Positions 7,547 to 64,000 of a stretch of 64,000 nucleotides of DNA are shown piece after piece (positions within the stretch are counted from its first letter, which is position 1; the number at the start of each line of letters is the position of its first letter). The notes under the pieces are model-generated. The model did not search any database. It worked only from the letters and a program-made list of their open reading frames with translations, and was not told where the DNA came from. Location of the stretch: positions 42,259-106,258 of the IMG/VR virus record IMGVR_UViG_2576861193_000004. One strand, 5' to 3'. This DNA is from a virus. Its lineage: Duplodnaviria > Heunggongvirae > Uroviricota > Caudoviricetes. The position numbers and the translations under genes were made by a program.

Positions 7547-7570
7547 AATAGTAAGTATATACTTACCAAT
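7547..7570. promoter_or_regulatory. motif-2 palindrome (ATAGGTAA-n-TTACCTAT family)
   Basis: aatagtaagtatatacttaccaat upstream of major tail gene. Confidence 0.45.
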
Positions 7571-25401: not shown

Positions 25402-25860
25402 CGTTTCCAATACTCCCACCATAACGCGCCATCATTGGCGCGTTTTTTATTGTCTTTAACTCGCTCCAACAACATAAAAATAAGCACCAAAATAACGCCA
25501 TAGACGCGCTTTTATATCCTTGTCAGTACATACCCATTACTTAACACATTAACGCGCTTAAAACGCGTTATATTGCGCTATAGAGTATGGTTAATCATTG
25601 GCTTTTAGTCTTGCTATGTGATCCGCGTTTATTTGTCGGCGCGGATCGGCTCTTTGTGTTGTTTTGTATCCGCTCGCGTATTATGTGCGCGTGATTTTTC
25701 ACATAATCACACCACTTAATCACATATGTGATTACGCTACGAAAGAAATCTGGATGTCTCAGGCGACGAAAGTCATCATAATTTTCCCCGCTCACCTGTC
25801 CGACAACCGCTGGTTGGATTCCACCAGCTTCCCGATGTTTTTTCTACATAAAGGCGAATG

Positions 25861-25981
25861 CAGCCGTTTCCCGAAAAAATCCTGGCCGTTTCCCGTCGGC
25901 TCATGAATGCGTTCCTCGCCGTTTCTGAAAATTTCCCTGCGGCAGCTGGTGGCTATAGAGAAAGGGCCGTTTCTGGCCCTC
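25861..25981 (+). repeat. iteron-like direct repeat array (4 copies, GCCGTTTC core)
   Basis: cagccgtttcccgaaaaaa / tggccgtttcccgtcgg / tcgccgtttctgaaaat / gggccgtttctggccc at roughly 21-27 bp spacing. Confidence 0.5.
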
Positions 25982-25988
25982 TTCTCAG

Positions 25989-26471
25989 TTACACGCCATC
26001 AAGGATGTGGATGCGGTTGCTTGCGTATACATTCAGCATAAAGTTAGCGCAAAACAGTTTCCATGTATCAACGCCAGCGGTATACGTAATGTTTTTGCAT
26101 TTAATTGCATTGTTGGCGATCCGCATCCCCTGCGATACTGCTTCATCGTCGGAAAATTTGAACGACGATTGAGTTTTAATCCAGACAGAAATCTGCGTAG
26201 CGAACTCAATCAGCTTGGACTGGCAGAATCGCCCGGAGCGCACCGGAAAGACGAACGTTCCGAATCCAGAATTTACCACATACGCTTTCTCAAATACCCG
26301 CGAGTAACGACGATTGCCAATGATGTCGCGTGCAATAATGCATTTTTCTTGTGCTGACAGTTCTACCGTCTCATTGTCGCGCCATGCACCAAGTACTCGT
26401 TTTTCAATGTCAGAGAACGTTACAGCGATATTGCCATGTGCGGGTGCGTTTACAGTAGCGATAAAATTCAT
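25989..26471 (-). CDS. hypothetical protein
   Basis: 160 aa; motif-1 palindrome 20 bp upstream of start. Confidence 0.3.
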   Translation of the reverse strand: MNFIATVNAPAHGNIAVTFSDIEKRVLGAWRDNETVELSAQEKCIIARDIIGNRRYSRVFEKAYVVNSGFGTFVFPVRSGRFCQSKLIEFATQISVWIKTQSSFKFSDDEAVSQGMRIANNAIKCKNITYTAGVDTWKLFCANFMLNVYASNRIHILDGV

Positions 26472-26490
26472 GATTAATTCCTTATCGTAA

Positions 26491-26508
26491 ATAACAAATT
26501 GTTTTCTT
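26491..26508. promoter_or_regulatory. motif-1 palindrome
   Basis: ataacaaattgttttctt, 20 bp upstream of start at 26471. Confidence 0.5.
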
Positions 26509-26821
26509 GTTGGTGTTAATTATCGTTGTACGAATAAGGCGTCAAAGTGGAAAGTTGCGGTAGCCGGACGGGAACAGGTGGGTTTGTCGGTTGCCTGGAG
26601 GTAAGAGGTTGGTGTTTTTAGCCTGCGGGAAACAGGATGGTCATTTAAGGCCACCAATGCTGATGGCCTTAATAATTATCGCCCTATTACGCTAAGGATC
26701 TTTTCCTCAACTGATTTGTTGTTGCGACTAAACTGCCTTGCGTATCTGATGACAGAAGAGGCGTTTTGCTTTCTGACCAATTCGACTCTTTCCTTCAGGG
26801 TTTTCTTGAAATCGCCCATAT

Positions 26822-27196
26822 TTACCACCAGGCGCAGAAGGTCAGTCTGTTATTGTGAAAGTCGTGGTTCCTGATCAGGTCTTCCACAAGTTTTTTCAGC
26901 TTATCCACGTCATGCCAGTAACCTTCGTCGTACTCCTGACTGCCGAAGAAAAAACCTTCCCGAGTAGGCAAGTACTCTTCGCAATTGCTTTCGTTTATGT
27001 GCATCAAATGAGCTTTCAGAAGACAAATGTCATTCATCGTTAATTCTAAAAGCTCACAATTTTCGACTTCACCTACGTTGCGCTCCATCCACCCAACGAG
27101 CGCATTGAACTTACGGAAGTAAGCAACCTGCTTTCTGGATGCCTCGTTATTCAGATCGTTTTTAGGCTGTGTCTCGATATAGATATCAAGTCCCAT
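26822..27196 (-). CDS. hypothetical acidic protein
   Basis: Start set at MGLDIYIE with RBS AAGGAAACC; motif-1 palindrome upstream; possible 46-aa coupled ORF downstream (about 26684-26821). Confidence 0.3.
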   Translation of the reverse strand: MGLDIYIETQPKNDLNNEASRKQVAYFRKFNALVGWMERNVGEVENCELLELTMNDICLLKAHLMHINESNCEEYLPTREGFFFGSQEYDEGYWHDVDKLKKLVEDLIRNHDFHNNRLTFCAWW

Positions 27197-27252
27197 GATG
27201 GTTTCCTTATTAAGTTGCTTCAGTGAAATCATTTTCACAAATCAGATAAGGC

Positions 27253-27268
27253 AGAAAACAAATTGTTA
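27253..27268. promoter_or_regulatory. motif-1 palindrome
   Basis: agaaaacaaattgtta. Confidence 0.5.
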
Positions 27269-27313
27269 TCGGGCATAATAAAATGGCGCGGTTTACGCGC
27301 CATTTAAAGAGGA

Positions 27314-27709
27314 TTAAGCGAATACGCTTTCAGGGATTAAGGTGTCGGCAGGAATGCCAGAGGTAATGCGCAGACCGTACTGGCCAATCCAGGTGGTGCT
27401 GGTGTTCAGGCTGGAGGCGAATACGGTGTTAACCATATTCATCATGGTTTCAAACACCTCTTCATCAACCTGGCGGAAGTAGTTCTCGATTTTCAGCAGC
27501 AGCGGGTCAGTTGCATCGAGAATGGACTGGTATTGAGTCGCGTACTCGCCGCCGGAGGCATCACCTTTACGCACGATCGTACTGGCCTGGACTTCGGCAC
27601 CAGTTTCGGTGTTGTACGTAACAACGGTAATTTTTGCCACATTCTTACCTTCGGCGGTTTCAGAGGCATAGTAAACATCAACTGTCAGTTTTTCGCGTTT
27701 AACGGTCAT
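27314..27709 (-). CDS. hypothetical protein
   Basis: Start set at MTVKREKL with RBS GGAGAG; motif-2 palindrome upstream. Confidence 0.3.
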   Translation of the reverse strand: MTVKREKLTVDVYYASETAEGKNVAKITVVTYNTETGAEVQASTIVRKGDASGGEYATQYQSILDATDPLLLKIENYFRQVDEEVFETMMNMVNTVFASSLNTSTTWIGQYGLRITSGIPADTLIPESVFA

Positions 27710-27775
27710 TTCACTCTCCGTAGTGTCTTGGTTATTTTTATATTCTATGATCGTAAGTATGTACTTACAATACAA

Positions 27776-27805
27776 AAAAGCCCCGTAAGGATGGCGGGGC
27801 TGTCG
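27776..27805 (-). terminator. rho-independent terminator
   Basis: Minus strand agccccgccatccttacggggct followed by tttttg. Confidence 0.5.
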
Positions 27806-27835
27806 TACGGTCGACTAATTACCACTTGCACATTA

Positions 27836-28147
27836 TCAGGCTATTGCCATCACTGATGCTCTCTGAATCTCTTGCTGGGCCACGCGGTTAACTTCCATCA
27901 AAGCCAGTTCGAGCTGATGTTCCGGCCACATTCTTTGAAATGCCACCCAGCCTTTTCCACGCTGGCGACGAACATTCATTACATAACGAGTAAAGGTGTT
28001 TTTATCGAAAGACACCGCTGTTTCACGGAACAGACGAATAGAGGTTCCATTGGCAACGATGTCCAGCAAAGTTAATTGAGCAACCAGCGCAGGCTTCTCT
28101 TTTCTCTTCTGGTCTTTGTCCAGACCAAGAACCAATGATTTTTTCAT
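27836..28147 (-). CDS. hypothetical basic protein
   Basis: Start set at MKKSLVLGL; motif-1 palindrome immediately upstream. Confidence 0.3.
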   Translation of the reverse strand: MKKSLVLGLDKDQKRKEKPALVAQLTLLDIVANGTSIRLFRETAVSFDKNTFTRYVMNVRRQRGKGWVAFQRMWPEHQLELALMEVNRVAQQEIQRASVMAIA

Positions 28148-28157
28148 CACAACTCCG

Positions 28158-28174
28158 TAAACAACTTGTTTTCT
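28158..28174. promoter_or_regulatory. motif-1 palindrome
   Basis: taaacaacttgttttct preceded by caactccg. Confidence 0.5.
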
Positions 28175-28300
28175 CAATGGCGTAAATAATACCAGTAAGA
28201 AAACGGCTACAAAGCATATTGATCAGGTGCATGAGCGATATGCAGGTTCTTCCCTGCGGCTATAGAGAAATTAAGCCAGCAATGCTGGCTTTGGTTGGGG

Positions 28301-28630
28301 TTACTCGAATACTTCAAGAAACTCCTGAACGTCCCAATGCTGGACGAGGTGAAGATAGACCTTAGAAATCACGTCATTTTCGCTATCGCATGTGAAGTAG
28401 TACTTCTGGCTGCGGTTGTATGTGTCCACACAAAATTCGCTCATATCCATAAAGTCAGCATCTTCACCCATGTCGCAAATCATCAAAGCAGGTGCGTCAT
28501 CACGAGTCATCAGCTCCAGCACCCATCTTGAATTAATCAGAGTGGAAGACCAACCTTCCAGCTCATAGAACTGGTCAAACTCTTTTTGAGTCAATTTCTT
28601 GATTTGGTTGATGTCGATATTTGCAAACAT
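28301..28630 (-). CDS. hypothetical small acidic protein
   Basis: Start set at MFANIDINQ with RBS AAGGA; Asp/Glu-rich; motif-1 palindrome in 5' UTR. Confidence 0.3.
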   Translation of the reverse strand: MFANIDINQIKKLTQKEFDQFYELEGWSSTLINSRWVLELMTRDDAPALMICDMGEDADFMDMSEFCVDTYNRSQKYYFTCDSENDVISKVYLHLVQHWDVQEFLEVFE

Positions 28631-28642
28631 AAAGCAATCCTT

Positions 28643-28658
28643 AAACAACATGTTTTCT
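28643..28658. promoter_or_regulatory. motif-1 palindrome
   Basis: aaacaacatgttttct in 5' UTR of 28301-28630. Confidence 0.5.
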
Positions 28659-28991
28659 TGATGGTGTTATTATCGCAATAACGCACAGGCGAAAAAGGAT
28701 TTTATTCCGGTGAATGTGGTTTTGGCAGTGAGTTTTCAGGTTCAGTACCGAGTACACTTTTTACATTATTCTGATTTAGTGGCCGAAGGTGGCTGGTGGG
28801 CAGAATAATCATCTCCCCGAAAACCTACTGAAATCGATTGTGACCCGCTGACTGTCTGGCACAATTACGCTGTAGTTGGGCATTCAGAGGGAATCCAGCG
28901 GTAAGTAAGTTCGCCTGCACGTGAGCGCCTCTCTTCTTCCCGCACATTACAGGTGGGTAGCCGCAACTCTCCCTATCGCTATACCGGTACG

Positions 28992-29129
28992 CCGCCGTTC
29001 CTGAACCGGCATCGAGCCTTTTCCCGAAATCCACACAGGCAACTCGACCGTTTCCCTGAAAACCTCCAGCCGTTCCCCGAAGGCAACCCAGCCGTTTCTG
29101 TAGCGGGATGCAGCCTTTTCCCTGTATGG
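28992..29129 (+). repeat. iteron-like direct repeat array (6 copies, GCC(G/T)TT(T)CC core)
   Basis: cgccgttcctgaa / gagccttttcccgaaat / cgaccgtttccctgaaaac / cagccgttccccgaagg / cagccgtttctgtagc / cagccttttccctgtat at about 22 bp spacing; same family as array at 25861-25981. Confidence 0.5.
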
Positions 29130-29229
29130 ACCTAAGGCTGACCGTAGGGGTGTTACGGGGGATAAAATCAGGAGTTGATTAAATACGAAAAAGGAGGCGA
29201 CACCCCTCCTTCCCTCCCCACTTATACAT

Positions 29230-29995
29230 ACCTGTCTTGTTCGCTATACATGTTGTGTTTTCTTCGTGTTTTATCTGTCTCAACCTCTCTATAGGCGTTA
29301 ATGCTCACTCCTTCCAGAATGTTCTATACGGCGACTATTTCTGTTGGTGAATTGGGTGTGTTGTTTTCTCTGTCGGTGTATGTGGTTTCGTTCGTTTTGC
29401 GGTGGTTCTTCTATGGGGTGTTCTCGTCGTTTTGGTGATTGTTCTTCTCCGTGTATGGAGTAATGGCAGGTGGGCGATTCCTTTCGTTATTGTGTTTGAG
29501 TTGTTTGTCTGGAGTGTGAAAGGCTTTTGTAGTTATTCGTGTATTGGGTAATGGCGTTTCCCGTGATTGTTATGTTTCGTGTCTTTTGGGATTGAGAGAA
29601 ACCTTGCGGTTACAGGCTTCGTTGGGGTTTCAGTGATTCTGGTGTTTCTTCGCTGTTTGGGTAATGGCGTGTCGTGGGTATCGCGCGTATGAATGTTTTC
29701 GGATTGCCTGTGAAAGTTAGGTTGGTTGTCCGGTAGCCTGGGGAGAAGAGGTGGGTCTTTTCGGTAGCCTGCCATAAAGAGGTTGGTTGTTTTGGGGAAT
29801 GGCATGTGTGTTATTTAGTTGTTTTGTTATGCCTGAAAATAAGTTGTTTATATGGTTGTGTAACGCAACGGGAACGATTTTGAGCGTGTGTTTTTGTTGG
29901 TGGTGTGTTGGGTCGTCTGTGGTGAAAATTGGACGCTGTGGCGCTGTCTGCTGCGTAGAATTACGGGTATAAGAAGTGATGTGTGAATACGTCAA
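29230..29995 (+). other. ORF-free tract with extreme G+T strand bias (C+A-rich on minus strand)
   Basis: Plus strand almost devoid of A and C over about 0.75 kb; only low-complexity ORFs on minus strand; contains CGGTAGCCTG..AGAGGTKGGT motif also present at 26555-26620. Confidence 0.5.
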
Positions 29996-30192
29996 TTTTT
30001 TAGACCAAATCGGGTGAAAGCGTTGACGTTTCGTTGATCTGTTATTCAGTTGTTTTCTTATTGGTATAAACAACGTTAACCTATTGATATTTAAAGGTGT
30101 GATTGCAGGTATGGAAGGAGAGTAGTGGCGATCAACAGATTCTTATAGAAAAGAATCAAATTGTGACCGCCATTATCAATAAGTTGCAACCG

Positions 30193-30762
30193 TTAGTTGT
30201 TCAGATAAACATTTGGAACACGGACGTAGAAGTTCCTGTCGCCGGTAAGTTCCAGAGTAATGTTAATGTCATTACCATTGTCTAGTGTAGCCGTTGCTCT
30301 ATAGAACTTATCCGTCACCTTGTCCTCTATTGTCACCTTCATACATTTTGGTGCAGTCGAACCGTTATTCTCTTTCAGAATAGTTGTCACGAGAGGGCAG
30401 GCTGCTTCTTCAAGAGCAACCTCGTCCTTGTGTGGGATGCCGATGAAGATAATCCAAGCCAGCGACGCAACGATTATGATAAATGGCACTCTGCTGCCTT
30501 TTGTAATAGTCGCGCGCTTCCAGAGATAGACAGGCAGGAGGAATACCCCCCATAGAATTGAAGGTGGTTCACAGCCAGACTCCGATAGAGCCATTCTGTC
30601 AGCTACTAACAAACCGATGGTAGTTACACCCCCAATTATAATAGCGTAATTGGTATACTCTTCCGGCGATACTCCAAAGAAGAAAGGCATGAACGCTAGA
30701 ATCCACGCATAAATGTTATTCAGAGGTTTTGTTTGTTGGTTCTGGGTTTCCATCACATCCAT
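30193..30762 (-). CDS. hypothetical membrane protein (N-terminal TM helices + C-terminal soluble domain)
   Basis: Hydrophobic segments IYAWILAFMPFFFGV, AIIIGGVTTIGLLVA, ILWGVFLLPVYLW, FIIIVASLAWIIFIGI. Confidence 0.35.
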   Translation of the reverse strand: MDVMETQNQQTKPLNNIYAWILAFMPFFFGVSPEEYTNYAIIIGGVTTIGLLVADRMALSESGCEPPSILWGVFLLPVYLWKRATITKGSRVPFIIIVASLAWIIFIGIPHKDEVALEEAACPLVTTILKENNGSTAPKCMKVTIEDKVTDKFYRATATLDNGNDINITLELTGDRNFYVRVPNVYLNN

Positions 30763-30914
30763 TCCATCACATAAAAATCGCGTTTATATATTATCAATTT
30801 TCTCACTTGTATAACCTAAATACGCATCCGTTTATCAATCCACCTTCCACAAACATCAGCTTTAGCTATGAAAAATAACAATCTCAAAGTGAAAACCATT
30901 ATCATAGGAAACGA

Positions 30915-31100
30915 TTAGATGAGATGGTCTAATTCATCATCTATCATTGCTTTAACACTTGAGTCATTAACCCCGTATTGATTTATGAGCCGTTTCAGCT
31001 CCGGTGAAAACTGAAGGTAGATATCGTGAGCGTTTTTCACTGTAGGTTCAACGCCACGCATTTCAAGCGCCTTTAGTAGATATGAGTCTTCTTTAAGCAT
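30915..31100 (-). CDS. hypothetical small protein
   Basis: 61 aa ORF downstream of 31137-31436. Confidence 0.25.
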   Translation of the reverse strand: MLKEDSYLLKALEMRGVEPTVKNAHDIYLQFSPELKRLINQYGVNDSSVKAMIDDELDHLI

Positions 31101-31136
31101 AAATTCTCCGTTATCTAGTATGAAGCGATTGCCGGA

Positions 31137-31436
31137 TTACCATTGCCAGCACTCTAGCCCTTCAACGACCGGTGCACCACAATCAAAATGTACAGAGTCA
31201 AAGCCTACATCAAGTACTTTCTGAATGTTAGCAATCGCGCCTTCGGATATACCATATCGACGCAAGTCATCTTTCCAGACATCATCCTGTAACCCGGCGT
31301 GGACAATACAACCGCCATCAATTTGTGAAACCCAATCCAGCTCATTGCTTGCGATCATGAATCGGCGAGCATCTTCCTCTGATGTATGAGATGAACTGAT
31401 CAATGCCACCTGGTAGGCTTGGGTAATGTTCAACAT
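31137..31436 (-). CDS. hypothetical protein
   Basis: 99 aa; two motif-1 palindromes upstream (31448-31465, 31497-31514). Confidence 0.3.
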   Translation of the reverse strand: MLNITQAYQVALISSSHTSEEDARRFMIASNELDWVSQIDGGCIVHAGLQDDVWKDDLRRYGISEGAIANIQKVLDVGFDSVHFDCGAPVVEGLECWQW

Positions 31437-31447
31437 TTCAACAACTC

Positions 31448-31465
31448 CGAAACAATTTGTTTTCT
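31448..31465. promoter_or_regulatory. motif-1 palindrome
   Basis: gaaacaatttgttttctt preceded by caactccg. Confidence 0.5.
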
Positions 31466-31496
31466 TATGTGGCTTATTATCTCAATCAACAAAAGG

Positions 31497-31514
31497 TAGA
31501 AAACAAATTGTTTT
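31497..31514. promoter_or_regulatory. motif-1 palindrome
   Basis: agaaaacaaattgtttta; last phage-type signal before metG terminator. Confidence 0.5.
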
Positions 31515-31597: not shown

Positions 31598-33631
31598 TTA
31601 CTTAACCTGGTGGCCTGGTTTAGCACCAGCATCCGGGCTTAACAGGAAGATATCTTTCCCGCCGGGGCCAGCAGCCATCACCATGCCTTCGGAGATACCG
31701 AAGCGCATTTTACGCGGAGCCAGGTTAGCCACCATAATGGTGTGACGACCAATCAGTGCCTGTGGGTCTGGATAAGCAGAACGGATGCCTGAGAAGACAT
31801 TACGCTTTTCACCACCGAGATCCAGTGTCAGACGCAGCAGTTTGTCAGAACCTTCGACAAACTCCGCGTTTTCAATCAGCGCCACACGCAGGTCAACTTT
31901 GGCGAAGTCGTCAAAGGTGATGGTTTCCTGAATCGGGTCGTCAGCCAGTGGGCCAGTTACCGGTGCAGCTGTGGCTTTCACTTCTTCTTTGGATGCTTCC
32001 ACCAGTGCTTCCACCTGTTTCATATCGATACGGTTATACAGTGCCTTGAACGGATTCACTTTATGGCCCAGCAGCGGTTGCTGGATACCATCCCAGGTCA
32101 GTTCTGTATTCAGGAATGCTTCTGCACGTTCAGTCAGTTTCGGCAGTACCGGTTTCAGGTACGTCATCAGCACGCGGAACAGGTTAATGCCCATAGAGCA
32201 AATCGCCTGCAGGTCGGCATCGCGGCCTTCCTGCTTCGCCACCACCCACGGAGCCTGTTCATCAACATAGCGGTTAGCCAGGTCAGCCAGTGACATGATT
32301 TCACGGATAGCTTTGCCAAATTCGCGGCTTTCCCACGCTTCACCAATCACTTCAGCGGCATCAGTGAAGGTTTTGTACAGTTGCGGGTCAGCCAGTTCGC
32401 TTGCCAGCACGCCGTCAAAACGTTTGTTGATAAAACCTGCATTACGGGAGGCCAGGTTAACCACTTTGTTCACGATATCGGCATTCACGCGCTGAACAAA
32501 ATCTTCCAGGTTGAGATCGATATCATCAATGCGCGAAGAGAGTTTCGCAGTGTAGTAGTAACGCAGGCTGTCGGCGTCAAAATGATTCAGCCAGGTGCTG
32601 GCTTTAATAAAGGTGCCGCGAGACTTGGACATCTTCGCGCCGTTCACCGTCACATAGCCGTGAACAAACAGGTTGGTCGGCTTGCGGAAGTTGCTGCCTT
32701 CCAGCATGGCAGGCCAGAACAGGCTGTGGAAGTAAACGATATCTTTACCGATGAAGTGGTACAGCTCGGCGGTGGAGTCTTTCTTCCAGTATTCGTCGAA
32801 GCTGGTAGTGTCGCCGCGTTTGTCGCACAGATTCTTGAAGGAACCCATGTAGCCAATCGGCGCGTCCAGCCAGACGTAGAAATATTTGCCCGGTGCGTTC
32901 GGAATTTCAAAACCGAAGTACGGCGCATCGCGGGAGATATCCCACTGTTGCAGGCCAGATTCAAACCACTCCTGCATTTTGTTTGCCACCTGCTCCTGCA
33001 ACGCACCGCTGCGGGTCCATGCCTGCAACATTTCGCTGAAAGAGGGCAGATCAAAGAAGAAGTGTTCAGAATCACGCATTACCGGCGTAGCGCCAGAAAC
33101 CACCGATTTCGGCTCGATCAATTCAGTCGGGCTATATGTTGCGCCGCAGACTTCACAGTTATCGCCGTATTGATCTGGCGCTTTACATTTAGGACAGGTG
33201 CCTTTTACAAAACGGTCCGGCAGGAACATGCCTTTTTCCGGGTCGTACAACTGAGAGATAGTGCGGTTTTTAATAAAACCGTTCTCTTTCAGGCGAGTAT
33301 AGATAAGCTCAGACAACTGACGGTTCTCTTCGCTGTGCGTCGAGTGATAGTTGTCATAGCTGATGTTAAAGCCTGCGAAATCAGTCTGGTGTTCCTGACT
33401 CATTTCGCCAATCATCTGCTCCGGTGTGATACCAAGCTGCTGTGCTTTCAGCATGATCGGCGTACCGTGGGCATCGTCGGCACAGATGAAATTAACCTCG
33501 TGGCCGCGCATTCGCTGGTAACGAACCCAGACATCAGCCTGGATGTGCTCCAGCATATGGCCGAGGTGGATTGAGCCGTTAGCGTACGGCAGCGCGCACG
33601 TCACCAGAATTTTCTTCGCGACTTGGGTCAT
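31598..33631 (-). CDS. metG: methionine--tRNA ligase
   Basis: Translation from [26 protein letters not shown] (HIGH motif) through KMSKS to C-terminal tRNA-binding domain ending [10 protein letters not shown]; 677 aa from ATG 33631; ORF track N-terminal extension rejected. Confidence 0.95.
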
Positions 33632-33788
33632 AGTAGGCATTACTTCTTTGTAGTGAAAAGGGGCTTGATAGTAACAAAATGGCCTTATGTCTGCCATGTG
33701 ATAACAGCATTTCTCATAAATGATTAAATGTCGTAGCTGGAGTACACTACAAGGCGACAATTGCGCAAATTAAAATAAAGGAGACGGG

Positions 33789-39720: not shown

Positions 39721-42700
39721 ATGACTCATCAAACACACACCATTGCTGAATCCAATAACTTTATCGTCCTTGATAAGTACATCAAAGCTGAGCAAACAAG
39801 CGACAGCTACCAGAGCGAATCGGACCTGGAACGTGAACTGATTCAGGACCTGCGGAATCAGGGTTATGAATTTATTTCCGTAAAATCACAGTCGGCAATG
39901 CTGTCCAATGTTCGGGAACAGCTTCAGAGCCTCAATGGTGTGATGTTTAATGACAGCGAGTGGCGGCGCTTCACGGAGCAGTATCTGGACAATCCCAGCG
40001 ATGGTATTCTGGATAAGACCCGTAAAATCCATATCGACTATATCTGCGACTTTATTTTTGACGACGGGCGTCTTGAGAACATCTATCTGATCGATAAAAA
40101 GAATCTCATGCGCAACAAAGTGCAGATTATCCAGCAGTTTGAACAGGCAGGTTCTCATGCTAACCGTTATGACGTCACGATCCTGGTTAATGGCTTGCCT
40201 CTGGTGCAAATCGAACTGAAAAAGCGCGGCGTGGCGATTCGTGAGGCTTTCAACCAGATACATCGTTACAGCAAAGAGAGTTTTAACAGCGAAAATTCCC
40301 TGTTTAAGTATCTGCAACTGTTTGTCATTTCTAACGGCACCGATACCCGTTATTTTGCCAACACCACAAAGCGCGATAAAAACAGTTTTGACTTCACCAT
40401 GAACTGGGCGAAATCAGACAACACGCTGATTAAAGACCTCAAAGACTTTACCGCTACCTTTTTCCAGAAACATACCCTGCTTAATGTTCTGGTGAACTAC
40501 AGCGTGTTTGACAGTAGTCAGACGCTACTGGTGATGCGACCGTACCAGATTGCAGCTACCGAACGGATCTTATGGAAAATCAACAGCTCCTATAAAGCGA
40601 AAAACTGGTCTAACCCCGAAAGCGGTGGCTTTATCTGGCACACCACTGGTTCCGGTAAAACACTGACCAGCTTTAAAGCCGCGCGTCTGGCAACTGAACT
40701 GGACTTTATTGATAAAGTCTTCTTCGTGGTCGACAGGAAAGACCTCGATTACCAGACCATGAAGGAATATCAGCGTTTTTCGCCAGACAGCGTCAACGGC
40801 TCGGAAAATACCGCAGGTCTTAAACGAAATCTGGATAAGGACGATAACAAAATTATCGTCACCACTATTCAGAAACTTAATAACCTGATGAAAGCAGAAA
40901 GCGACCTGCCTGTATACAATCAGCAAGTGGTGTTTATATTTGATGAATGCCACCGCAGCCAGTTTGGAGAAGCGCAGAAAAACCTGAAGAAGAAATTCAA
41001 ACGCTATTATCAGTTTGGTTTTACCGGCACCCCTATTTTCCCGGAAAATGCCTTAGGCTCAGAAACGACCGCCAGCGTATTTGGTCGTGAATTGCATTCG
41101 TATGTAATTACCGATGCGATTCGTGACGAAAAAGTGCTCAAATTCAAGGTGGACTACAACGATGTGCGGCCACAGTTTAAGTCTTTAGAGACAGAAACTG
41201 ACGAGAAAAAACTGAGTGCGGCTGAAAATCAGCAGGCGTTTCTTCATCCCATGCGTATTCAGGAAATCACGCAATATATCCTGAACAACTTCCGCCAGAA
41301 GACTCACCGTACTTACCCCGGCTCCAAAGGTTTTAATGCCATGCTGGCAGTAAGCAGCGTGGATGCCGCGAAAGCCTATTACGCGACGTTTAAACGGTTA
41401 CAAGAGGAAGCCGCTAATAAATCTGCTACCTATAAACCACTGCGTGTTGCGACAATCTTCTCCTTTGCCGCCAATGAAGAACAAAATGCCATTGGTGAAA
41501 TTTCCGATGAAACTTTTGATACCAGCGCAATGGACAGCAGTGCTAAAGAGTTTCTTGACGCTGCAATTCGTGAGTATAACAGCTATTTTAAAACTAACTT
41601 CAGCACCGACAGTAACGGTTTTCAGAACTACTATCGTGATTTAGCCCAACGGGTTAAAAATCAGGATATCGATCTGTTAATTGTCGTTGGGATGTTTTTA
41701 ACCGGCTTCGACGCTCCAACATTGAACACGCTATTCGTCGATAAAAACTTGCGTTTTCACGGCCTGATGCAGGCATTCTCCCGTACCAACCGCATTTATG
41801 ACGCTACTAAAACCTTCGGTAACATCGTCACTTTTCGGGATCTGGAACGCTCAACCATTGATGCCATAACGCTGTTTGGTGATAAAAATACTAAAAATGT
41901 GGTGTTAGAAAAGAGTTATGCAGAGTATATGGAAGGCTTTACTGATGCTGCTACAGGTGAAGCTAAACGCGGCTTTATGGCAGTAGTTTCAGAACTGGAA
42001 CAACGGTTCCCTGACCCTGCCAGTATTGAAAGTGAAAAAGAGAAGAAAGACTTCGTTAAACTGTTTGGCGAATACCTGCGTGCCGAGAACATCCTGCAAA
42101 ACTATGATGAATTTGCCACGCTGAAAGCCCTGCAACAAATCGATCTTAGCGATCCTGTTGCGGTAGAAAAATTCAAAGAAGAACATTATGTGGATGATGA
42201 AAAGTTCGCTGAATTGCAAACGATTCGTCTCCCTGCTGAACGCAAGATTCAGGATTATCGTTCTGCCTATAACGATATTCGTGACTGGCAGCGCCGCGAG
42301 AAAGAAGCTGATAAAAAAGAAAAATCAACCACTGACTGGGATGACGTGGTTTTTGAGGTCGATTTGCTGAAGTCTCAGGAAATAAACCTGGATTATATCC
42401 TTGGACTGATTTTCGAACACAACAGACAAAATAAAGGCAAGGGCGAAATGATCGAAGAGGTCAAACGCTTAATTCGTTCAAGCCTGGGGAACCGGGCGAA
42501 AGAGGGCCTGGTGGTCGATTTTATTCAGCAAACGAACCTGGATGATTTACCAGACAAAGCCAGCATCATTGACGCGTTCTTTACCTTTGCTCAACACGAA
42601 CAGCTACGTGAAGCAGAAGCGTTGATTAAAGAAGAAAATCTCAATGAAGAGGCGGCGAAACGCTATATTCGCACGTCTTTAAAACGCGAATACGCCACCG

Positions 42701-45022: not shown

Positions 45023-45040
45023 TAAACAAGTTGTTTTCTT
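45023..45040. promoter_or_regulatory. motif-1 palindrome
   Basis: taaacaagttgttttctt upstream of 44436-45005. Confidence 0.5.
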
Positions 45041-45302
45041 ATTGGGTTTATTGTGATGTGGCATATAAGGGGAGCAAGCTAAACGTAAAGGTGCAAACTC
45101 TCTATTTTGGTCAACGAAACACAAGGGCCATTTGGCCCTTGCCATTAACACGTTGCTTTACGGACTAGCGGATAGGCGAAGTAGATCGCCAAACCAATGA
45201 GGACGCCATCAGAAATGACAGACATCATCTTTCCCGTAAAATCCACCAACACCGCCATCACCAGAAGAGCAATGACGGTCACAAGCCGGAATCTCTCAAG
45301 CA

Positions 45303-60730: not shown

Positions 60731-61375
60731 TTAAAACGTCTCTGAGGGCTTCTGACGCGCTCTGCTGATGTCTATTACCCCAGCTTTTGGACGAGGGTCT
60801 ACAAGATTCAACTCTTCAGCACTGTGATACTCCGTGTCGAACTCCCGATCGACATGGCGAATGTAAATGGCTGTCAGAAGGCTGTTATCATTCAGAAAGT
60901 GTCCGTAAGATTTGCGAATTACTTCGCCAACCTTCTCAATCTTCTCTCCGCCCATGCAGAGATGGTTAAATCGGCTGTGTTTCCGCAGCATTTCATCCAC
61001 CGGGCCTGAGTAGACCTTATCAACTCTCCCGAACCGGATGATATTTCCGGTATCAGCTTCAACCAGACAAACGAGTTTGCCAGGTTCGACACGATCTCGC
61101 CAAGTGACACCAGAGCGCAGTGTGTTGAAGTAGGGAGCATCCAATCCGATGATCGGTTTACGAAATGCTAGTAGTGGCACGTAACGTATGCAGCTGTTTA
61201 GGTGGAAATGCGCACCGGCGTCGTGGAGTTTAAGCCGGGTTTCGTTAATCGGGCATTTCGAAGCAATGCCGCAAAGGTCGCAGAGCAACTTCTGTTTGTT
61301 CAGACTAGTGTTTGATTCAATGGTGTAGGAGCCATCTTCAAGACGGCGAACCCAGCGCGTGCGTTTAAGATCCAT
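60731..61375 (-). CDS. hypothetical protein
   Basis: 214 aa; Cys pair CDLCGIASKC. Confidence 0.3.
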   Translation of the reverse strand: MDLKRTRWVRRLEDGSYTIESNTSLNKQKLLCDLCGIASKCPINETRLKLHDAGAHFHLNSCIRYVPLLAFRKPIIGLDAPYFNTLRSGVTWRDRVEPGKLVCLVEADTGNIIRFGRVDKVYSGPVDEMLRKHSRFNHLCMGGEKIEKVGEVIRKSYGHFLNDNSLLTAIYIRHVDREFDTEYHSAEELNLVDPRPKAGVIDISRARQKPSETF

Positions 61376-61460
61376 AATTCTTGTTCAAATAATTTTGTCC
61401 GGGGCAACGATAACGGATAAGGCGCACCGGAGTTTGCAAATGCCTGTTTACTTATTCACT

Positions 61461-61677
61461 TTATTCACAGGCCCGATCCAATATTTAGATCCCCAGAGAG
61501 ATCCTACAGAAGATCAAAAGAGATCCCAGATCGTCTCCAGCGCTTGCGGTTACTGGCTTGAGAAGGGGTTACTATCCACTATAGGGAGCAAAATAACCAC
61601 TGTAGAGAGCATAATAACCGCTATGAAGAGCAAAACAACCTCTCTGGAGAGTAGTCGGTATCCACTGTAGTGAGTAG
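61461..61677 (+). promoter_or_regulatory. origin-like region copy 1: DnaA box, GATC cluster, iterons
   Basis: TTATTCACA (61461-61469); six GATC within about 70 bp (61475-61542); then 4-5 iterons with core CCACTRTAGRGAG (61571-61677). Confidence 0.6.
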
Positions 61678-61844
61678 GAGACAATGTTTTAACTGGATAA
61701 CTCCGAGCCTGTTTTTCTGCGGCAGATGGCTGATATTCTTGGAAATATTGTAAATTTTGCGCTGCGGCGTGTTTATTTCGATCACACATTATCCCCAGAA
61801 GGGGAGTGATGCCTGATTTTGTAATTATCTGATTTTTATACACA

Positions 61845-62075
61845 GGCCCGATCCAGTAATTCAGATCCCTGTTAGAACCAAAGAGAACCACAAAGACCCA
61901 AAGAGATCCCCGGCCCCTGCAAACCGTTGTGCCACATGGCTTTAGAGGTTATCGATATCCACTATAGTGAGAATAACAACCACTATAGAGAGTAAATCAA
62001 CCACTATGGAGAGTAGAAAAACCGCTGTAGGCGGTAGGATAACCACTGTGATGGGTGCTACTATCCACTGTAATC
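61845..62075 (+). promoter_or_regulatory. origin-like region copy 2: DnaA box, GATC sites, iterons upstream of repA
   Basis: TTATACACA (61845-61853) followed by cacaggcccgatccagtaattcagatccc (near-copy of 61466-61492), then 5 iterons (61955-62075). Confidence 0.6.
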
Positions 62076-62117
62076 AGTAAAGGCACCCAAGCCGTCGAAT
62101 AAAAAGAGACATTTGGA

Positions 62118-63173
62118 ATGAGCGTAAACGACAATAAAAACATTGCGATAAGCGAAGCATTTTCCGAAACAGACAAAAAGACCGGCGAAGTTGTTACGTT
62201 AGTTCCTAACACCAACAACACAGTTCAGCCTGTTGCTCTGATGCGTCTTGGTCTCTTCGTTCCGACGCTGAAATCGACATCCAGGGGTAGAAAGGGGCAA
62301 ATGGTCTCTATGGACGCCTCCGCTGAACTCAAACAGCTGTCTCTGGCCAAAGCCGAAGGGTACGAGGATATAAGGATTGCTGGTCTTCGTCTTGATATGG
62401 ATAACGATTTCAAAACATGGGTGGGCATCATCCACGCGTTCGCCAAGCACAAGGTTGTTGGTGACACCGTCACGTTGCCGTTCGTCGAGTTCGTCAGACT
62501 TTGTGGCATACCAACAGCCAGATCGTCCGCGAAGTTACGTAAGCGCCTGGACAGCTCTCTAAGTCGTATCGCCACAAACACCATCTCATTCCGCAGCAAA
62601 GGCTCTGAAGAGTATTACGTTACGCACCTTGTGCAGACGGCAAAGTACAGTACCAAGAATGACACGGTCGAACTGAAGGCCGATCCTAAGATTTTCGAAC
62701 TTTACCAGTTCGACAAAAAGGTGCTTTTGCAACTTCGGGCCATCAACGAACTCTCCAGAAAGGAATCCGCGCAGGCGCTCTACACCTTCATTGAAAGTTT
62801 GCCACCAGACCCGGCGCCAATCTCATTGGCTCGCTTACGCGCCAGACTTAACTTAACCAGCCGTACCATTACCCAGAATGCGACAGTCAGGAAGGCGATG
62901 GAGCAACTGCGAGAGATCGGCTATCTCGATTACACTGAAGTGAAACGCGGCAGCTCGGTCTACTTCGTCATCCACTATAGACGGCCGAAGTTACGTTCGG
63001 CACTGCCGCCATCTATGGCCACGCCTGAAGATCCAGAAGATATCTTGTCAGGTGATGATCCGGAGGACATTATCGATGTTGCTCCTGAAGAAAAAGACGG
63101 GGAAATGGTCATGTTGAGCAAGGAAGAACTGGCGATTCTCGAAGAGCTGCGCAAGGCAAAGGCTCGCAAATAG
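62118..63173 (+). CDS. repA: iteron-binding plasmid replication initiator RepA (P1/RepFIB type)
   Basis: 351 aa; [62 protein letters not shown]; flanked by iteron arrays. Confidence 0.75.
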
Positions 63174-63180
63174 CCCAACC

Positions 63181-63790
63181 ACTGTAGAGAGTAAAAAGGC
63201 TCACTATCCACTGTAGTGAGCCTTTTTGTTTATCGGAAATGCAATATCCACTGTAGTGAGTAAAAGAAACCGAAGAATAACCACTGTAGGCAGTGCGCAC
63301 AAATCGCGAAGTAAATGTTAGTGGTTGCAAACATAGATAAAACAAGGGCTGAGAGGTTAGCGGTCACTGGGTATCTCTGTTAAGTCTACTCTCTACAGCG
63401 GTTATCGTCGCTCTCCTCATTGTTGACTATCCACTGTGAAGAGCAGAATTGGCTGACTTGACCTCTATCCACTGTAGTGAGTGGATATCCGTTTAAAACA
63501 GCGAAGATTTACTCTCCATAGTGGATATCCGCTGGAGGGGGCATTCCATCACTCTCTATAGTGGTTGTTTGTAGTCAGTGAACGCCTGTTTACTCACTAC
63601 AGTGTATAGCGACCCCGATAATCACCAATTTACTCACTACAGTGGATAGTTGATATCGTGGCAGAGGGTTTGCTCACTACAGTGGTTGGGGTGCATACCT
63701 GAAGGGTGTTCTACTCGCTACAGTGGTTATGAGCCGGATTCACACGCGGTGAGCTGGCTACTCACCGCAGTGGATAGTGTTATCAGTGGA
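63181..63790. repeat. downstream iteron array (incA-like), at least 9 copies in both orientations
   Basis: Repeated CCACTGTAGTGAG / CTCACTACAGTGG cores about every 40-60 bp. Confidence 0.6.
63193..63227 (+). terminator. rho-independent terminator after repA (hairpin built from an iteron)
   Basis: aaaaa-ggctcacta-tccactg-tagtgagcc-ttttt. Confidence 0.55.
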
Positions 63791-64000
63791 TTTTCTTCAG
63801 CAGACCCCAGAGTGTCCCGGCCTTCGTTGCGAGCTTACCTGTTTCCGGATCGTACATGCGCCATTCACGTCGCTGGTGGACAATATACCCATCTTCACGT
63901 TCCAGTCGTTCCAGTACGCCGGACTGCTTGAACCCTTTGGCACGCCAGGTGATGCTGCCAACTTACTGATTTAGTGTATGATGGTGTTTTTGAGGTGCTC
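63783..64000 (-). CDS. hypothetical protein, C-terminal part only (gene starts beyond window end)
   Basis: Minus-strand frame ending ...WRAKGFKQSGVLERLEREDGYIVHQRREWRMYDPETGKLATKAGTLWGLLKKIH with stop at 63783-63785. Confidence 0.3.

Follow-up and report, generated by a model that had tools for sequence, protein, structure and literature searches.

Situated at positions 29230 to 29995 of a 64,000-nt stretch of the viral record IMGVR_UViG_2576861193_000004 (positions 42,259 to 106,258 of that record; hereafter, the window) is a noncoding tract of about 0.75 kb whose two strands differ sharply in base composition. The window comes from an SSU5-type phage-plasmid, the closest relative being Escherichia phage Cyrano, and all of the genes flanking the tract are on the minus strand, i.e., they are read from right to left. 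Comparison of lineages indicates that the composition of the tract is a conserved property, independent of its sequence. The explanation that we favour, albeit tentatively, is that the tract acts as an extended Rho-loading insulator on minus-sense RNA; for this, we infer Rho to be the agent and insulation to be the function under selection.

The plus strand of 29230-29995 consists of 15.3 % A, 13.8 % C, 30.9 % G and 39.9 % T, and the resulting G+T content of 70.8 % stands against a mean of 49.7 % (0.497, with a standard deviation of 0.035) for 500-nt windows across the 64 kb. Among such windows, the maximum is 0.75 at 29336, and the tract is the sole segment above 0.66. The extreme strand asymmetry reported in the original prediction, i.e., the note on this DNA that preceded the present analysis, is hereby confirmed, with no second outlier in the 64 kb. 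Based on 100-nt windows, the bias extends from ~29300 to ~30000, and within the tract the GC skew of the plus strand rises to +0.51 while its AT skew falls to -0.58.

This composition has been kept across lineages. All nine aligned relatives retain the bias, with G+T amounting to 72.9 % of invariant and 65.3 % of variable alignment columns, and the sense strands of four lineages have 35-40 % A, 29-32 % C, 14-18 % G and 13-17 % T. Over the tract, lineages are 60-67 % identical to each other; since neighbouring coding DNA, whose proteins are 31-49 % identical, has a similar identity of ~67 %, the tract is at least as constrained as its neighbours. The most distant case is the Klebsiella plasmid pCRKP18622-1, whose flanking marker protein is 31 % identical to that of the window. 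At the syntenic position, this plasmid has an unannotated 1.5-kb gap, inside which ~800 nt are 67-70 % A+C on the sense strand, and the nucleotide match to the window's tract is down to one 39-nt stretch. Because an A+C-rich tract persists there with almost no sequence similarity, composition itself is what is maintained. No 3-mers or 4-mers were enriched beyond dinucleotide composition in all lineages, and searches for tandem periodicity by autocorrelation and Fourier analysis gave nothing strong (best lag, 35; z = 3.2). Likewise, (ARN)n runs of the Hfq type and, by hand count, GGA motifs of the CsrA type occur in the tract at chance level. Most substitutions between close relatives are transitions, and G-T exchanges are no more frequent than composition would predict, so that there is no signature of a keto-only constraint.

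The tract is noncoding. The original prediction had called it free of open reading frames (ORFs), which holds in the biological sense, there being no conserved ORF, but not literally, as mechanical ORFs of 118 and 90 aa can be read on the minus strand and of up to 61 aa on the plus strand. Long open frames are to be expected here, because stop codons need the depleted bases. A conserved protein-coding frame had been named beforehand as evidence that would count against a noncoding role; when relatives were examined, no such frame was found. Indels of 1 and 2 nt already separate relatives with 93-98 % identity, and the longest open frame varies widely in length among close relatives (on the minus strand, e.g., 227 codons in one and 96 in another); of the 9-12 indels found between lineages, 6-11 have lengths that are not divisible by three. 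Nor does the tract show a 3-nt periodicity (lag-3 signal). The 118-aa ORF, which is annotated as hypothetical in two phage records, matches no family in PHROG or Pfam, whereas every real neighbour has a PHROG, and the NCBI pipeline PGAP placed no annotation under the tract match in 29 of 30 sampled Escherichia coli records.

As minus-sense RNA, the tract has features expected of a Rho utilization (rut) region. Its C/G ratio is 2.24 overall, and 78-nt windows with a C/G ratio of at least 2 run unbroken from 29313 to 30044 (732 nt), the longest such run in the window; the second-ranked minus-strand intergenic C/G zone is a short related segment that is described further below. There are seven minus-sense start codons in the tract, compared with ~40 expected. 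The minus-sense RNA has a minimum free energy of -122.9 kcal/mol for 816 nt (-0.15 kcal/nt), which is no lower than that of shuffled sequences (z = -0.40), and the plus-sense RNA gives z = +0.80. In an RNAalifold analysis of the nine relatives, the pairs were mostly G-U, and the covariation term accounted for -10.6 of -85.8 kcal/mol over 1221 columns. Hence, the covariation analysis that had been suggested in the original prediction yielded weak covariation only, and the large noncoding RNA proposed there is, as a structured RNA, not supported. An Rfam search of 25500-31500 with E values of up to 1 also returned nothing credible, the only hit being a chance microRNA match (E = 0.83) at 30847-30913, outside the tract. 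The tract is comparable to the GOLLD- and ROOL-type RNAs of Rfam in being noncoding, phage-borne and of about their size, but differs from them in having no Rfam match, excess folding energy or convincing covariation.

The landmarks that frame and punctuate the tract are as follows, given in the direction of the genes, from right to left:

30193-30762, minus strand: upstream gene, a homologue of CYRAN_102, expressed in lysogens; this slot holds different genes in different lineages.
30126-30172, minus strand: hairpin directly after the stop codon of the upstream gene (30193), with an outer stem of ~8 bp, an inner stem of ~7 bp and the loop UUUCUAUAAG; -20.4 kcal/mol, z = -4.4.
30023-30075, minus strand: degenerate copy of a promoter-operator unit (ATACCAATAAGAAAACAACTGAATAACA) plus CGTTGA-type repeats, including TTGACGT at 30023-30029 and CGTTGATC at 30032-30039.
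29967-29995, minus strand: promoter-like element, TTGACG-N17-TTATAC, or TATACC with an 18-nt spacer.
29230-29966, minus strand: skewed tract, noncoding and unstructured; minus-sense A 40, C 31, G 14 and T 14 %.
29809-29850, minus strand: internal operator-like element (ATAAACAACTTATTT..AACAAAACAACTAAATAACA; repeat family D8), a perfect AAACAA-N-TTGTTT palindrome in the SSU5 lineage and in pCRKP18622-1.
29700-29792, plus strand: three tandem 31-nt units of the form CGGTAGCCTG-N8-AGGTGGGT, the first of them (29700-29730) degenerate; paralogous to 26558-26648.
29412-29470, plus strand: most conserved block (GGGTTGTTCTCGTCGTTTTGGTGATTGTTCTTCTCCGTGTATGGAGTAATGGCAGGTG), 55 nt, nearly invariant across nine relatives.
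29187-29219, minus strand: polypurine G-run GGGGAGGGAAGGAGGGG (29219-29203), which in the E. coli lineage pairs with CCUCC and is followed by a U-run, giving an intrinsic-terminator-like hairpin.
28994-29135, plus strand: six direct repeats of AGCCGTTTCCCTGAA type, (A/G)(G/C)CC(G/T)TT(T/C)CCC(T/C)GAA, spaced mostly 21-23 bp with one 32-bp gap.

The locus as a whole is a conserved noncoding block of 1.2 kb, for which the 30126-30172 hairpin forms the upstream boundary. In five lineages, the loop and outer arms of this hairpin are invariant, and the inner stems differ in a covarying manner. One of its outer pairs is a G-U wobble that pairs in the minus-sense RNA only, indicating that the minus strand is transcribed at least as far as this hairpin. 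The ATAAGAAAACAA and ATCAA..GTCAA motifs of the 30023-30075 region are also invariant in five lineages.

The TTGACR-17-TTAYAC arrangement at 29967-29995 resembles a promoter, and its hexamers and spacing are kept while the spacer sequence varies, both in 16 relatives and in pCRKP18622-1 (TTGACA-17-TTACAC). The putative -35 is one arm of an inverted repeat, ACGTCAA (29989-29995)/TTGACGT (30023-30029), with the arms 27 bp apart. A scan with the sigma-70 consensus found no promoter in the tract, the promoter-like element not being called since the last position of its -10 is not T, i.e., it is non-canonical. Neither the scan nor inspection by eye found a conserved promoter on the plus strand. A sigma-54 reading of TGGCAGG was tried and fails on spacing. 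Farther along the tract, GGTAATGGC-type repeats (families D2 and D5) occur four times, at 29459, 29547, 29660 and 29795, the first of these within the most conserved block; in the window, the motif occurs 27 times versus 10.5 expected. At the far end, the polypurine run, 17-20 nt with G-clusters, is kept in 16 relatives at a distance of 747-794 nt from the promoter-like element, and this distance has been kept despite at least ten indels of up to 44 nt between lineages, the indels largely cancelling each other. The terminator-like hairpin detected by a terminator scan at 29187-29214 has a folding energy of -17.6 kcal/mol (z = -3.4) and is weak in the SSU5 lineage. The next early-gene promoter lies beyond the iteron array.

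Published RNA-seq data for LF82, a Cyrano lysogen, are given as log2(FPKM+5) per gene (FPKM, fragments per kilobase per million) for five conditions (PMC9928086, table S1). CYRAN_102, the upstream gene, has a mean of 57 FPKM in overnight culture and reaches ~580, whereas CYRAN_103 has 0 FPKM in overnight culture and at most 14 in any of the five conditions, the strandedness of the library not being established (PMC9928086). Since CYRAN_103 equates to window positions 29717-30073, which take in the promoter-like and operator region plus approximately the first third of the tract, transcription in lysogens collapses at the upstream edge of the tract. CYRAN_103 is low even in macrophage samples at 6 h in which the major capsid gene has ~190 FPKM, and CYRAN_104 (terminator plus iterons) has 1-20 FPKM, with levels from CYRAN_105 onward rising independently (PMC9928086). 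The promoter-like element is silent in the five sampled conditions. The features counted in these data leave out window positions 29231-29716.

Taken together, three characteristics of a rut region were found here, i.e., C-rich and G-poor RNA over at least ~80 nt, the lack of folding and translation, and a drop in transcript, although the hairpin alone could cause the drop. The Rho explanation is favoured because the minus-sense RNA is C-rich, poor in start codons, untranslated and unfolded, and because it fits the observed polarity. According to this model, the tract would be a noncoding spacer held A+C-rich by selection on the strand that is the sense strand of the entire neighbourhood, and RNA polymerase moving leftward would produce untranslated, unfolded, C-rich and G/U-poor RNA, which would offer an extended loading zone to host Rho. 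Two sources of transcription would be stopped thereby: read-through from the lysogen-expressed upstream gene and any firing of the normally silent promoter-like element at 29967-29995. Both transcripts would be aborted ahead of the polypurine run, the iteron array and the early-gene cassettes, and in the E. coli lineage the intrinsic terminator at 29187-29214 would serve as a backup. Rho-dependent terminators include lambda tR1, with its rutA and rutB, and the long, Rho-sensitive leaders of mgtA, corA and rho. The tract shares with them an untranslated, C-rich, G-poor, unfolded sense RNA downstream of an active gene, with a collapse in transcript levels, as well as a stable upstream hairpin able to protect the 3' end. 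On the other hand, it is ~5-10 times longer and U-depleted, has its own promoter-like element at the upstream edge, contains conserved internal motifs and ends at a polypurine run and iteron array. Among the roles put forward in the original prediction, a zone of rut-type termination for minus-strand transcripts fits best, given the strand of the genes, the C/G ratio, the paucity of start codons, the unfolded RNA and the RNA-seq drop; however, a typical rut site has neither a length of 0.75 kb nor the conserved motifs and promoter-like element seen here.

Several observations count against a Rho-loading insulator. Known rut sites are roughly 80-150 nt, and the length of 750 nt is not accounted for by Rho loading; the drop in RNA-seq signal occurs already within ~120-470 nt of the hairpin. 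The 30126-30172 hairpin may itself be the main terminator; in Cyrano, a similar hairpin, belonging to the family with 10-bp stems, coincides with a 9-fold RNA-seq drop and has no C-rich units after it (PMC9928086). YC dinucleotides are enriched only mildly (12.8 versus 10.4 per 100 nt). Moreover, Rho requires C-richness, not U-poverty; that U is depleted as well hints at selection against base pairing of any kind, something that mechanisms other than Rho loading would also favour. Left unexplained are the 55-nt invariant block, the GGTAATGGC repeats and the exact CGGTAGCCTG boxes, as well as a promoter-like element aimed into the tract and the 747-794 nt between it and the polypurine run. Finally, the expression data carry the limits on strandedness and coverage (~29231-29716) given above.

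Another explanation, possible but in our estimation unlikely, is that the tract gives rise to a minus-sense transcript that activates or primes an origin. Here, the promoter-like element would fire upon induction, the unfolded RNA would re-anneal to its template and form a hybrid at the polypurine G-run (29219-29203), the element's own RNase HI would cut the hybrid into a primer, and leftward synthesis into the iterons would constitute the lytic origin. Of all classes of RNA-DNA hybrid, that of purine-rich RNA with pyrimidine-rich DNA has the highest stability. In line with this idea, the conserved promoter-like element points at the iterons, the polypurine run lies immediately before them and at a narrow range of distances from the promoter-like element in the 16 relatives, and the iterons are separate from those of RepA, making a second initiator plausible. 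The relatives also encode, among their own replication genes, DnaE, a DnaB-like helicase, primase, ligase, RNase HI and a 5'-3' exonuclease. Transcript-primed origins include those that use ColE1 RNA II, which is under antisense RNA control, the T4 oriF and oriG R-loops, and the mitochondrial LSP-CSBII primer; comparably to these, a promoter-like element is aimed at origin-like repeats over 0.5-0.8 kb of noncoding DNA, there is a G-rich purine run at which a persistent hybrid could form, and RNase H is encoded by the element. However, ColE1 RNA II is highly structured and the RNA of the tract is free of structure; hardly any of the RNA is seen, including in samples in which late genes are expressed; Rho would be attracted by a C-rich, unfolded leader, which works against transcription as far as the origin; there is no AT-rich unwinding element or DnaA box near the iterons and no GC-skew switch; and both the promoter and the origin activity are putative. 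The original prediction had placed such a primer on the other strand, as a G-rich plus-strand R-loop. That version is not supported, as no conserved promoter was found on the plus strand and the plasmid initiator has iterons of another kind, and it is the minus-sense version, consisting of promoter-like element, spacer and polypurine run by the iterons, that is possible.

The iteron array adjacent to the tract, as noted in the original prediction, is real, comprising the six AGCCGTTTCCCTGAA-type units at 28994-29135. These repeats are kept in the SSU5 lineage and in pCRKP18622-1, and occur nowhere else in the window. RepA, of the Rep3 family (Rep3_N, E = 2.4e-11), is encoded at 62118-63173 on the plus strand, 32 kb from the tract, and has its own iterons, at least 18 copies of CTATCCACTGTAGTGAG type that flank repA in both orientations between 61.5 and 63.8 kb. 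The 28994-29135 array as a part of the RepA replicon or an inc locus was therefore considered and rejected, its sequence being unrelated to CTATCCACTGTAGTGAG and its position 32 kb away. It is similar to the auxiliary iteron arrays of P1 and F (incA/incC) in having direct repeats ~22 bp apart outside of a coding region of a phage-plasmid, and differs from them in that its units are unrelated to the iterons of the element's own RepA and are so distant from repA. No DnaA boxes occur within the tract locus, no AT-rich unwinding element accompanies the array, the flanks being 55 % G+C, and no GC-skew switch of the origin or terminus kind is found at the locus besides the tract itself, nor is there a global switch. 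Within the plasmid replicon proper, at 61350-63800, a 383-bp duplication and DnaA-box-like sites (61461, 61789 and 61836) lie upstream, a layout like that of P1/F oriR plus incA. A natural interruption of the tract bears on its relation to plasmid replication. In NZ_CP083480.1, from a human blood isolate, an IS1 element sits mid-tract at 29423-29431, with a 9-bp target duplication; since this split tract is carried by a natural plasmid, an intact tract is not needed for plasmid maintenance. The IS1 insertion fits a regulatory or lytic-cycle role and not a replicon role.

Selection might also act on strand composition itself, an idea to which we assign a low probability. In this case, a strip of ~750 nt and near-fixed length, unable to pair with itself as either RNA or single-stranded DNA and with a repressible promoter on one side and a polypurine run plus iterons on the other, would represent a new kind of cis module. 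One form of it would be an R-loop 'runway' by which induction is coupled to lytic-origin firing, while in lysogens Rho would act as a safety catch; another would be an expressed decoy for Rho or single-strand RNases.

It is similarly improbable, in our view, that the tract is a regulatory platform at the level of DNA, in which double-stranded boxes (CAGGCTACCG/ACCCACCT units, GCCATTACC repeats, AAACAA-N-TTGTTT operators and CGTCAA repeats) are bound by phage regulators of early promoters. The tract would then have arisen in part from a duplicated promoter-upstream module of the gene at 25989-26471, and the skew would be secondary. The evidence for this includes the paralogous segment and the operator-like elements of the window:

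26558-26673, plus strand: short related segment, comprising three 31-nt units (26558-26648) followed, on the plus strand, by a hairpin (26650-26673).
26499-26514, 28166-28181, 28650-28665, 31457-31472 and 45031-45046, and also 30050-30065 and 29818-29833, minus strand: promoter-operator cassettes with a palindromic operator.

The short segment lies between the stop codon of a 47-aa gene and the promoter of gene 25989-26471, with its 31-nt units directly upstream of the -35 of that promoter. The original prediction was right that a shorter related segment exists at 26530-26680, the two being paralogous by way of their 31-nt units; read in the direction of the flanking genes, the hairpin precedes this segment and does not end it. 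This hairpin has a 10-bp stem (-17.5 kcal/mol, z = -5.3) and belongs to a family, AAGGCCACCA-N4-TGGTGGCCTT, that occurs right after the stop codons of small genes without a U-run in the sense direction, as at 26650-26673 of the window and at 2276-2299 and 2746-2769 of relative L001. In Cyrano, a different gene is upstream of the short segment, yet the units remain with the promoter, and in pCRKP18622-1 they are between a canonical intrinsic terminator and the promoter. In the latter setting, in which they would rarely be transcribed, the units look like putative double-stranded boxes for a regulator. A reading of the units as the ToxI-like repeats of a type III toxin-antitoxin system was rejected, there being no gene after them on their strand and the neighbours being opposite-strand PHROGs of unknown function. 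The promoter-operator cassette is found in intact form ahead of at least five small minus-strand genes and consists of an extended -10, TGnGATAAT or variants, followed by ACCAACAAGAAAACAA-N-TTGTTT and then a Shine-Dalgarno sequence and ATG. With ten matches versus 1.8 expected, the cassettes look like one repressor regulon over early or moron genes.

As further arguments for the binding of regulators to double-stranded boxes, operator-like elements of the same family as in the tract are upstream of those five or more neighbouring genes, CGGTAGCCTG is unchanged between lineages with protein identities of 31-49 %, and the units of the tract are followed by a degraded TGCGATAAT -10. Yet, the boxes are a minority of the 750 nt and the variable columns are skewed nonetheless, no k-mer is enriched beyond composition, binding sites need no strand asymmetry, and pCRKP18622-1 keeps the skew after having lost most of the boxes in its tract.

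The 10-mer CGGTAGCCTG also underlies a plus-sense explanation, which we consider very doubtful. It is exact at 29731-29740 and 29762-29771 on the plus strand, the two copies being 31 bp apart, and is exact in every lineage examined, antisense to the genes each time; in pCRKP18622-1, this applies to the short segment only (7554-7563, minus strand) and not to the long tract. Further sites are at position 367 of L004, 1246 of L006, 354 of L007 and 417 of L008, all relatives of the window. The ops element of RfaH needs C3-G8 and the pause positions T11 and G12, whereas G2 is dispensable and substitutions of G10 reduce activity (PMC5995543). Compared with ops12 (GGCGGTAGCGTG), CGGTAGCCTG matches at C3-G8, T11 and G12, and may be a chance match, a box for a regulator or a genuine ops site. 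The corresponding proposal is a rightward leader, G/U-rich and C-poor and hence unloadable by Rho, for which either the tandem CGGTAGCCTG motifs on the non-template strand would act as ops-like sites recruiting host RfaH or the G-rich non-template strand would favour an R-loop, a long antisense transcript being the product. Paired CGGTAGCCTG copies recall the JUMPstart element with its two GGTAGC motifs, the long untranslated region of a horizontally moving element is a setting shared with RfaH ops/JUMPstart, and the plus strand has a GC skew of +0.4 to +0.5. In contrast to RfaH-regulated leaders, the motif is antisense to every neighbouring gene, no promoter was found for its strand, and ops positions 1, 2 and 10 differ, G10 being a position at which substitutions cut activity. 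Additionally, the next 3.5 kb downstream is all on the opposite strand, the four CGGTAGNNTG matches in the window were reached by 5 of 100 shuffles, the long tract of pCRKP18622-1 lacks CGGTAGCCTG, and the conserved landmarks (the hairpin with its G-U pair, the promoter-like element and the terminator) are all minus-sense.

Highly improbable is a role for the RNA as a decoy or sponge, whereby unfolded A+C-rich RNA titrates Rho or toxin RNases that cut at ACA/ACY and thus favours the lytic programme. Conservation of composition and not sequence, the length and lack of structure of the RNA, and the presence of several toxin-antitoxin systems on the phage-plasmid would be compatible with it; against this, the RNA is nearly absent in every sampled condition, no motif exceeds composition and the (ARN)n runs are at chance. 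To our knowledge, an RNA decoy of this kind has no natural precedent. An origin of the skew in mutation, by deamination of a displaced strand, is unlikely as well, as minus-sense transcription predicts the opposite skew and plus-sense transcription would be without a promoter. The least credible reading is a protein gene or recent pseudogene, encoding either a low-complexity minus-strand protein rich in Thr, Pro, Asn, Gln and His or small hydrophobic plus-strand peptides, in favour of which are the mechanical ORFs, the one annotated in two phage records and the 227-codon frame of one relative; against it, open frames are expected from the composition, frames and boundaries shift among relatives that are 93-98 % identical, and there is neither periodicity, family match nor, in nearly all sampled E. 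coli records, annotation.

Turning to its distribution, the locus is carried by annotated relatives that are elements of 105-116 kb with nearly all of their genes on one strand, corresponding to the minus strand of the window. Over 28900-30200, the window is 97.5 % identical to Cyrano (pLF82) and 94 % identical to PhiR41_1, and matches SSU5 partially. A sensitive BLASTN search detected the tract on at least 839 PLSDB plasmids from six or more enterobacterial genera, among them Klebsiella, Escherichia, Enterobacter, Salmonella, Citrobacter and Cronobacter. Of 5,426 complete E. coli genomes, 240 (4.4 %) carry it, and it is plasmid-borne every time. Annotated plasmids have an annotation gap of 1.5-2 kb around it. 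A 15-mer scan of viral contigs gave mostly chance matches, with ~40 true relatives left after filtering, and a scan of genome contigs with the flanking protein as the query gave none. A family of 54-kb Klebsiella plasmids that has a homologue of the flanking gene has no comparable tract. The partial PLSDB matches (query 582-916 or 582-920) in large Klebsiella plasmids trace to a remnant truncated by an insertion sequence, as illustrated by the IncFIB/IncHI1B plasmid NZ_CP092410.1 of K. pneumoniae, which is not a phage-plasmid and has the right-hand 750 nt of the locus (L009 2706-3460) cut by an IS3-family element. Consequently, these IncFIB/HI1B matches were rejected as an independent context. 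In the literature on SSU5 or pHCM2 origins and transcripts, we found no description of the locus, and a paper on the Klebsiella plasmid p2 is without transcript data.

Some other aspects of the neighbourhood merit mention. Upstream of the locus, the window encodes on its minus strand a full-length methionyl-tRNA synthetase (metG, 31598-33760, 720 aa), as annotated in relatives, and just past metG, on the opposite strand, is a lysogen-expressed gene for a MinD/Mrp (ApbC)-like ATPase. A 61-aa ORF at 30915-31100 (minus strand) has a sub-threshold Pfam match to the T7 gp5.9 RecBCD inhibitor (E = 0.005; 17.1 bits versus a cut-off of 24.5), and beside it is a 99-aa ORF with DUF5983; this region may contain anti-defence genes. 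Just left of the iteron array, on the opposite strand, the Enterobacter and SSU5 lineages encode a very acidic 80-aa protein (SSU5_110; L007 2274-2516, plus strand) that is absent from the window and may be a moron of the DNA-mimic type. Lastly, the Chi octamer GCTGGTGG occurs 15 times in the 64 kb versus 1.5 expected from shuffles, a 10-fold excess, with seven copies on the plus strand (e.g., 2166, 21232, 25945 and 28792) and eight on the minus strand (e.g., 5009, 13883 and 16751) and no orientation bias; none of the copies is within the tract.

SSU5-type phage-plasmids are common in clinical Enterobacteriaceae. Annotation pipelines skip the tract locus. The mechanism involved is likely to be of a known kind, namely Rho-dependent insulation or a transcript-primed origin; what is new is the size, the composition kept without sequence, the fixed length, and the framing by a repressible promoter-like element on one side and a polypurine run and iterons on the other. 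For composition to be preserved where sequence is not is an uncommon situation in bacteria and phages, and it suggests a composition-dependent function. The IS1 insertion in NZ_CP083480.1 represents a natural knockout of the tract. If the tract is indeed a Rho-loading insulator, a mobile element would be using the terminator of its host to isolate the genes that it expresses in lysogens from its early and replication functions. If the tract is instead part of an origin module, the lytic origin that is missing for these elements would thereby be placed, and transcript-primed replication would gain a new example.

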